IMG/VR virus record: IMGVR_UViG_2718218139_000002
DNA length: 33,748 nt
Direction: 5' to 3' (one strand)
From: a virus
Taxonomy: Duplodnaviria > Heunggongvirae > Uroviricota > Caudoviricetes
A model generated the notes under the pieces. The model did not search any database. It was not told where the DNA came from and saw only the letters and a program-made list of their open reading frames with translations. The position numbers and the translations under genes were made by a program. Below, piece after piece: positions 15,475-15,995 of this stretch. Position 1 is the first letter of the stretch. Each line of letters starts with the position of its first letter.

Positions 15475-15905
15475 CAGAACTCGACGCCAGATACACAAAG
15501 GAGCTTGCTGATGCTAACGCGACTATCGAAAGTCTCCGTGCTGATGTTTGTGCTGGTCGTAAGCGCCTGCAAGTCGCCGCCACCTGTGCAAAGTCAACGA
15601 CCGGAGCCAGCAGCATGGGCGATGGAGAAAGCCCAAGACTTACAGCAGATAAAGCATTCCAGGCACAGACTGATGCTCAGGTTGCAGCGGCAAATGTTGT
15701 GAAAATACTCGCATCTGCCGATAGTCAGCAGAAATCTGATATCCGCGAGGCTCTGAAACTGCTCGGACAGTTCCAGCAACAGCAAGGAGACAATGCCCGT
15801 GCTGATGCAGAGCTTGTCCTGAAAAGTCAGGCACAGGGTCATGCGCAGCGCATGGACATCAGCAGCATCCTGCAAAAATCAACTCAGCAACAACCGCAGC
15901 AGTAA
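15475..15905 (+). pseudogene. Rz: Rz (i-spanin) 3' fragment lacking its N-terminal TM region; atypical extended C-terminus
   Basis: LDARYTKELADA...RADVCAGRKRLQV aligns with lambda Rz residues about 62-100; no Rz start or TM segment between the IS and this point. Confidence 0.6.
15511..15702 (+). CDS. Rz1: Rz1-like o-spanin lipoprotein embedded in the Rz frame
   Basis: MLTRLSKVSVLMFVLVVSACKSPPP: signal peptide with lipobox cysteine and proline-rich segment, in the +1 frame inside Rz. Confidence 0.5.
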   Translation: MLTRLSKVSVLMFVLVVSACKSPPPVQSQRPEPAAWAMEKAQDLQQIKHSRHRLMLRLQRQML

Positions 15906-15995
15906 TTAACCCATAACGTGCAATGGCTGTCTTTATGAGGCCTGGCACCATATTGCCTTCCGATGGGCTGAACATCGAGTAAACAGGGGTAACAA

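Follow-up and report, generated by a model that had tools for sequence, protein, structure and literature searches.

The tRNA gene argW of Escherichia coli K-12 harbours KplE1 (CPS-53), a defective P22/HK620-related prophage remnant whose IntS-type integrase gene is co-oriented with argW and adjoins yfdC (PMC2951348). KplE1 is 10.2 kb in length and has no repressor module; torI and both 16-nt att cores have been kept, and its excision is possible (PMC2951348). The integrase and the excisionase TorI are encoded at opposite prophage ends in KplE1, HK620, Sf6 and CUS-3 (PMC2951348). Sf101, CUS-3, Huey and JEP4 are complete, with Rz, Rz1, accessory genes, terS, terL and a 732-aa portal gene. A further prophage occupies argW in E. 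coli strain 98224 (NZ_CP173472.1), where terS, terL, replication genes, N and torI are retained.

The element described here lies within a window of 33,748 nt (33.7 kb), a term used throughout for the whole stretch of DNA that was analysed. Like KplE1, it is a defective P22/HK620-related remnant at argW with a co-oriented IntS-type integrase gene adjoining yfdC, and packaging and replication functions have been lost in both. Unlike KplE1, it measures about 28 kb, has a repressor, a nin region and Q, and contains intact scaffold, tail, ejection and tailspike genes. Its late genes follow the same order as those of Sf101, CUS-3, Huey and JEP4, with 98-99% nucleotide identity from portal codon 649 into the coat gene, but the complete packaging and lysis complement of these relatives is not preserved. 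The strain 98224 prophage shares its insertion site and its IntS-argW-yfdC end, and the island neighbouring that prophage is 99.8% identical to window positions 1-4910; the two differ in the packaging, replication, N and torI genes that strain 98224 still possesses. The region between the lysis cassette and the scaffold gene is very probably the scar of an illegitimate deletion in a P22-like prophage at argW, a product of ordinary prophage decay.

Identity of the prophage and its attachment site

As judged from its sequence, the element is a Lederbergvirus (P22-like) prophage with a head module of the CUS-3/Sf101 type, inserted at argW of an E. coli chromosome. Collinearity in blastn comparisons with Huey, Sf101, Dewey and PSJ-07 establishes the late-gene synteny holin-endolysin-Rz ... 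scaffold-coat-gp4-gp10-gp26-gp14-gp7-gp20-gp16 ... tailspike, and Pfam searches of the called genes returned P22_CoatProtein, P22_Tail-4, Phage_stabilise, P22_gp7, Inj_translocase and Phage_P22_gp16. The right end of the window holds the following features.

31347-32540, co-oriented with argW: IntS-type integrase gene, 397 aa (Arm-DNA-bind_3, Phage_int_M, Phage_integrase)
32666-32740, right end of the window: tRNA-Arg(CCU) gene, argW
32816-33748: gene of the formate/nitrite-transporter family, a homologue of yfdC as annotated in strain 98224

This integrase, argW and yfdC region is 96-97% identical to strain 98224 and Dewey. The three genes are present in the window, and neither TorI nor a second core was found there, the 16-17-nt att core occurring once as against twice in strain 98224. 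The element lacks torI and the distal core and therefore should not be excisable, unlike KplE1. The argW 3' end/att core at 32665-32681 reads ATGGCGTCCCCTGCAGG; the cores of KplE1 and HK620 and both cores of strain 98224 read ATGGTG..., unlike that of the window.

Several other features of the window accompany the prophage genes. Positions 1-4910 lie outside the P22-like genome, and 147 of 5,426 complete genomes contain a match to at least 80% of positions 1-5300. This segment includes two co-oriented ORFs, at 391-2868 (825 aa) and 2865-3857 (330 aa), with no match in Pfam, NCBIfam, PHROGs or PADLOC, and a truncated 'replication protein' gene (4649-4900, minus strand) that is annotated in other records as rolling-circle replication-associated. 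Within the nin region, an antisense ORF of 590 aa (8317-10089, minus strand) has ninE on one side and an HNH-endonuclease ORF on the other; its full length matches PHROG 9230, of unknown function, but it has no match in Pfam, NCBIfam or PADLOC, and it may be a moron. Upstream of ninG in the same region, the ORF at 10554-11201 (plus strand) encodes HNH_3 and weak AP2 domains of the homing-endonuclease type.

A chimeric ORF derived from Rz and portal genes

The lysis cassette and the scaffold gene are connected by an ORF of composite origin, with the features listed below.

15459-15905, plus strand: chimeric ORF, 148 codons, TTG start, TAA at 15903-15905
15475-15650, plus strand: internal fragment of Rz (i-spanin), codons 56-113 of 145 (Pfam Phage_lysis, PHROG 13)
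15511-15702, plus strand: remnant of Rz1 (o-spanin) in the +1 frame (tblastn with Sf101 Rz1, side-by-side translation)
15650, plus strand: deletion junction, one shared T (base-by-base comparison with Huey Rz and Huey portal)
15651-15905, plus strand: 3' end of the portal gene, residues 649-732 and stop codon, 100% amino acid identity to the Sf101 portal
15906-15995, plus strand: native portal-scaffold spacer, 90 bp, of equal length in Sf101 (4042-4131), Huey and PSJ-07
15996-16889, plus strand: intact scaffolding protein gene, 297 aa, length as in Sf101, Huey and PSJ-07, 98-99% nucleotide identity

A first-pass annotation, made from the sequence without database searches, had described an 'Rz-frame ORF' whose C-terminal 85 or so codons are Gln/Ala-rich and unlike Rz. 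The Rz origin of the N-terminal part is clear, with 98-99% nucleotide identity to Huey, HK75, Sf6, epsilon34, PSJ-07 and many others, but this is not an Rz gene, since only codons 56-113 of 145 are present. An i-spanin comprises a transmembrane anchor at its N-terminus, periplasmic coiled coils and a C-terminal portion in contact with Rz1. Here the N-terminal anchor segment (MSRVTAIISALVICIIVSLSW...) is absent, as are the C-terminal 32 residues (the AELNYY...QCLR segment), and the TTG start of the chimera falls inside the right end of IS600. The description of the C-terminal part was accurate: its 84 codons (15651-15902) are 39% Gln+Ala (19 Q, 14 A), compared with 21% in the Rz-derived part, and do not align with Rz. 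Pfam Phage_lysis ('Bacteriophage Rz lysis protein') covers residues 5-64 only and PHROG 13 (Rz-like spanin) residues 5-65 only, whilst blastp of Rz proteins against the C-terminal part gave no match.

The same annotation had proposed that this C-terminus is the 3' end of the portal gene, fused in frame by a deletion, and the comparisons bear this out. In tblastn searches, residues 649-732 of the Sf101 portal align to 15651-15902 at 100% amino acid identity, and the Huey portal at 98.8%. More distant portals also match, namely P22 gp1 (residues 636-716, 43% identity over 81 aa, E = 1.6e-19) and those of Sf6 and HK620 (residues 647-694, 44% identity over 48 aa), so that alignment with P22, Sf6 and HK620 yields the portals and not Rz. 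The C-terminal part also aligns with residues 639-717 of the P22 portal structures 3LJ5 and 5GAI (E = 2.8e-13). The C-terminal ~123 residues of gp1 form a helical barrel (PMC4992974), and the position of the match identifies the 84-residue remnant as the distal part of the C-terminal barrel helix. The clip, stem, wing and crown of a dodecameric portal ring are absent, only the last 84 residues being represented.

Downstream of the portal stop codon the locus is native. The scaffold ATG at 15996 follows the TAA of the chimera after exactly 90 bp, the distance given in the first-pass annotation, and positions 15650-15995 are 99.4% identical at the nucleotide level to Sf101 3786-4131, in a match that extends through scaffold and into coat as far as 17346. 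A megablast search of 50,697 phage records with positions 13500-17400 likewise recovered a block of 98-99% identity, starting at 15650, over the portal, scaffold and coat genes of JEP4, Sf101, Huey, Kapi1, CUS-3 and others.

The chimera has no native start, because IS600 and the adjacent 333-bp loss described below took the 5' end of Rz; it is therefore a pseudogene chimera and not a functional protein, and is presumably not expressed. A promoter and terminator scan of 13000-17000 gave three promoter-like sites, compared with 3.4 expected. In the overlapping frame, the Rz1 remnant comprises 46 native codons, which encode the signal peptide, lipobox and Pro-rich region, followed by 17 out-of-frame, portal-derived codons.

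The deletion junction and the interval lost

Compared base by base, the window matches Rz perfectly as far as 15650 and portal perfectly from that position onward. The overlap between the two is a single base pair, the T of CAGAT in Rz and of CAGGT in portal. When the breakpoints were mapped on Huey, Sf101, Dewey and the contiguous prophage of PSJ-07, they fell at 15650 in every case, 10 bp inside the region that had been delimited from 15640. Rz codon 113 is joined to portal codon 648/649, with an identical result from contiguous PSJ-07, and the product reads ...SPRLTAD followed by KAFQAQTD..., where genuine Rz continues from ...RLTAD into AELNYYRLRSG.... The fusion is in frame because both breakpoints sit on codon position 3.

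The missing interval amounts to 5,256 bp relative to the prophage of E. coli PSJ-07, 5,441 bp relative to Sf101 and 5,596 bp relative to Huey. A deletion had been correctly anticipated, although the proposed size of about 4-5 kb was too small: it is exceeded because accessory genes occupying 1.2-1.7 kb in relatives separate Rz from terS. In PSJ-07 the interval holds the 3' end of Rz, a small ORF, a Rha-family gene, a DUF2560 gene, terS, terL and portal codons 1-648. The window has thus lost the 3' ends of both Rz and Rz1, the small accessory genes, terS, terL and 88% of the portal gene. We infer that the late operon of the prophage underwent an illegitimate, microhomology-poor deletion of ~5.3-5.6 kb; the in-frame outcome would be a one-in-three coincidence, with nothing pointing to selection.

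IS600 and the remnants of the lysis cassette

Upstream of the junction, the lysis cassettes of Huey, Sf101 and PSJ-07 are collinear with the holin region of the window at 97% identity. Three features precede the Rz fragment.

13601-13924, plus strand: intact holin gene, 107 aa (Pfam Phage_holin_3_1)
13908-14210, plus strand: 5' fragment of the endolysin gene, residues 1-101 of 158 (tblastn with Huey endolysin)
14211-15474, plus strand: IS600 (IS3 family), 1,264 bp, with orfA at 14275-14577 and orfB at 14613-15431

The endolysin fragment equals the PSJ-07 endolysin up to ...QQIKE and then runs to a stop inside the insertion sequence, DNA homology ceasing at 14210. The IS600 copy has the expected length of 1,264 bp, terminal inverted repeats beginning TGAGGT and overlapping orfA/orfB transposase frames, and is 100% identical over those 1,264 bp to copies annotated 'IS3-like element IS600 family transposase'. 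A 3-bp target-site duplication is lacking, the flanks being gag and cag. These flanks, endolysin codon 101 of 158 on the left and Rz codon 55/56 on the right, are 333 bp apart in relatives (Huey 36249/36583; PSJ-07 prophage locus 3544/3878), and the 3' end of the endolysin gene and the 5' end of Rz have been lost with these 333 bp. The missing duplication together with the 333-bp loss therefore suggests an adjacent deletion or recombination between two IS copies. The lysis cassette is reduced to an intact holin gene and three fragments.

Deletions next to insertion sequences occur frequently in E. coli and Shigella. With an IS600 copy only 176 bp upstream of the junction, its absent target duplication and the 333 bp already lost beside it, the larger deletion could in principle also have been made by IS600, through transposase-mediated adjacent deletion or recombination between two copies. 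This is improbable, however, as IS-mediated deletions stop exactly at the IS terminus and no IS sequence is found at the junction; instead, 176 bp of colinear Rz sequence intervene between the right end of IS600 (15474) and the junction (15650), and for this reason the large deletion is regarded as an event separate from that of IS600. IS600 was consequently rejected as a direct cause of the 5.3-kb loss and accounts for the 333-bp loss only.

Further lesions of the element

The first gene beyond the scaffold gene is also interrupted.

16908-19413, plus strand: coat gene, split by an insertion sequence (Pfam P22_CoatProtein on the distal half)
17344-18592, within the coat gene: IS3-family (IS911-like) element, 1,249 bp, with a 3-bp duplication, ATT

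This appears to be a simple and recent insertion, since removal of 17344-18592 in silico restores a coat ORF of 417 aa.

In the early region, cro departs from its homologue in phage Dewey at codon ~51 (window position 6170), and cII and the replication genes preceding ninB, which occupy 3.3 kb in Dewey, are absent from the window. No reference sequence is assigned to the 203 bp at 6171-6373. At the left end, prophage homology sets in at 4910, a position that coincides exactly with the initiation codon of Dewey's N-like antiterminator gene. The window consequently has no N, early-left operon, torI or distal att core; together with the adjoining small int/AlpA/rep element, this absence amounts to about 11.6 kb relative to strain 98224. 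Replication genes, N, TorI and a second att core, all of which belong to an inducible lambdoid prophage, are thus lacking.

At least five independent lesions account for this state, namely an illegitimate deletion, two events involving insertion sequences and no fewer than two additional deletions. From its gene content, the element is predicted to be a locked-in, non-replicating, non-lysing and non-packaging remnant that is also unable to antiterminate or excise. It is an intermediate stage on the way to a cryptic prophage of the KplE1/CPS-53 kind.

In strain 98224, an IS3-family element that itself harbours a group II intron (ltrA) has inserted into the portal gene, and IS1203 separates scaffold from coat (region 25020-34223 in the extracted-locus numbering of NZ_CP173472.1). 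That prophage was broken by different events, IS and intron insertions that affect the same stretch from portal to coat, and decay at argW is therefore recurrent and independent.

Packaging capacity

P22-like phages encode the terminase subunits and the portal between lysis and scaffold genes, and it had been noted that all three are missing here. In tblastn searches of the 33.7-kb window with TerS, TerL and whole portal proteins of Huey and Sf101, only the portal tail, residues 649-732, was recovered, all other matches having E values of at least 0.3. A terminase or portal gene in a non-canonical position, which would have explained the gap differently, was likewise not found within the window. 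The only large ORFs outside the synteny are those at 391-2868, 2865-3857 and 8317-10089; a terminase of an unrelated family was sought in these 825-, 330- and 590-aa ORFs with Pfam, NCBIfam and PADLOC, which returned nothing, and with PHROGs, which returned families of unknown function only, for the 590-aa ORF.

The P22 record annotates the pac site inside gene 3 (terS), and this site was probably lost together with terS. The prediction that the element cannot package DNA agrees with these observations and is overdetermined: packaging should be impossible because terS, terL and 648 of the 732 portal codons are gone and no intact coat gene is present, the existing one being split by an insertion sequence.

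Distribution of the junction

The exact 148-aa protein is encoded on a single contig, QQVX01000004.1 of E. coli GCA_013416625.1, where it is annotated as a 'hypothetical protein' (NYT89281.1, 148 aa); about 15 billion proteins include no other member of its 90% cluster. When positions 15400-15900 were searched by megablast against 5,426 complete E. coli genomes, no place covered at least 80% of the query, and the junction is therefore absent from all of these genomes. The exact junction 37-mer had no match in GTDB species-representative genomes, nor did the exact junction 24-mer in JGI metagenomes. The deletion looks private to one strain, and since it seemingly occurs in only one, the events are not datable.

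As the sole source is one draft assembly, with the junction on contig QQVX01000004.1 and not found elsewhere, it might be asked whether the fusion is an assembly artefact concealing an intact locus. We regard this as very unlikely. The 1-bp overlap offers no repeat to mislead an assembler, the 539-kb contig spans two complete IS copies, suggesting that long-range information was available, and four other independent lesions in the element are consistent with real decay, as is the independently degraded sister prophage at argW in strain 98224.

Least credible of all is that the ORF represents an authentic long form of Rz with a native Gln/Ala-rich C-terminus in a non-canonical gene order: 15 phage records do each yield one tblastn place that spans 80% or more of the fusion, and PHROG 2466 (Rz-like spanin) reaches residue 91, weakly, but the one record of the 15 that was checked crosses the Rz stop codon with ~12% identity past residue 64, so that the coverage is attributed, on this record, to over-extension and the reading was rejected, whilst the C-terminal 84 aa, which match no Rz protein by blastp, are identical to the portal C-terminus from residue 649 onward and lead into the native portal-scaffold spacer, in a protein that is a singleton among about 15 billion sequences.

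Implications

A deletion scar in a decaying prophage thus remains the preferred reading of this locus, and a present function for its products is a speculation to which we give very little credence. In such a scenario, the chimera or the Rz1-derived lipoprotein remnant would be transcribed, for instance by read-out from IS600, and act as an accidental exclusion factor, the fragment of the portal barrel, a proposed binder of ejection proteins, hampering the assembly of superinfecting P22-like phages. Alternatively, the retained scaffold, tail, ejection and tailspike genes would serve as a reservoir for recombination with incoming phages.

The practical consequence of the preferred reading is one of annotation: NYT89281.1 should be recorded as a pseudogene chimera, and the whole element as a defective prophage. 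The scar itself is biologically ordinary and raises no new biological question. Its value is that the element provides a clean, base-resolved case of stepwise prophage decay at argW, a site that is also home to the KplE1 remnant of K-12 and at which a prophage has decayed independently in another strain.
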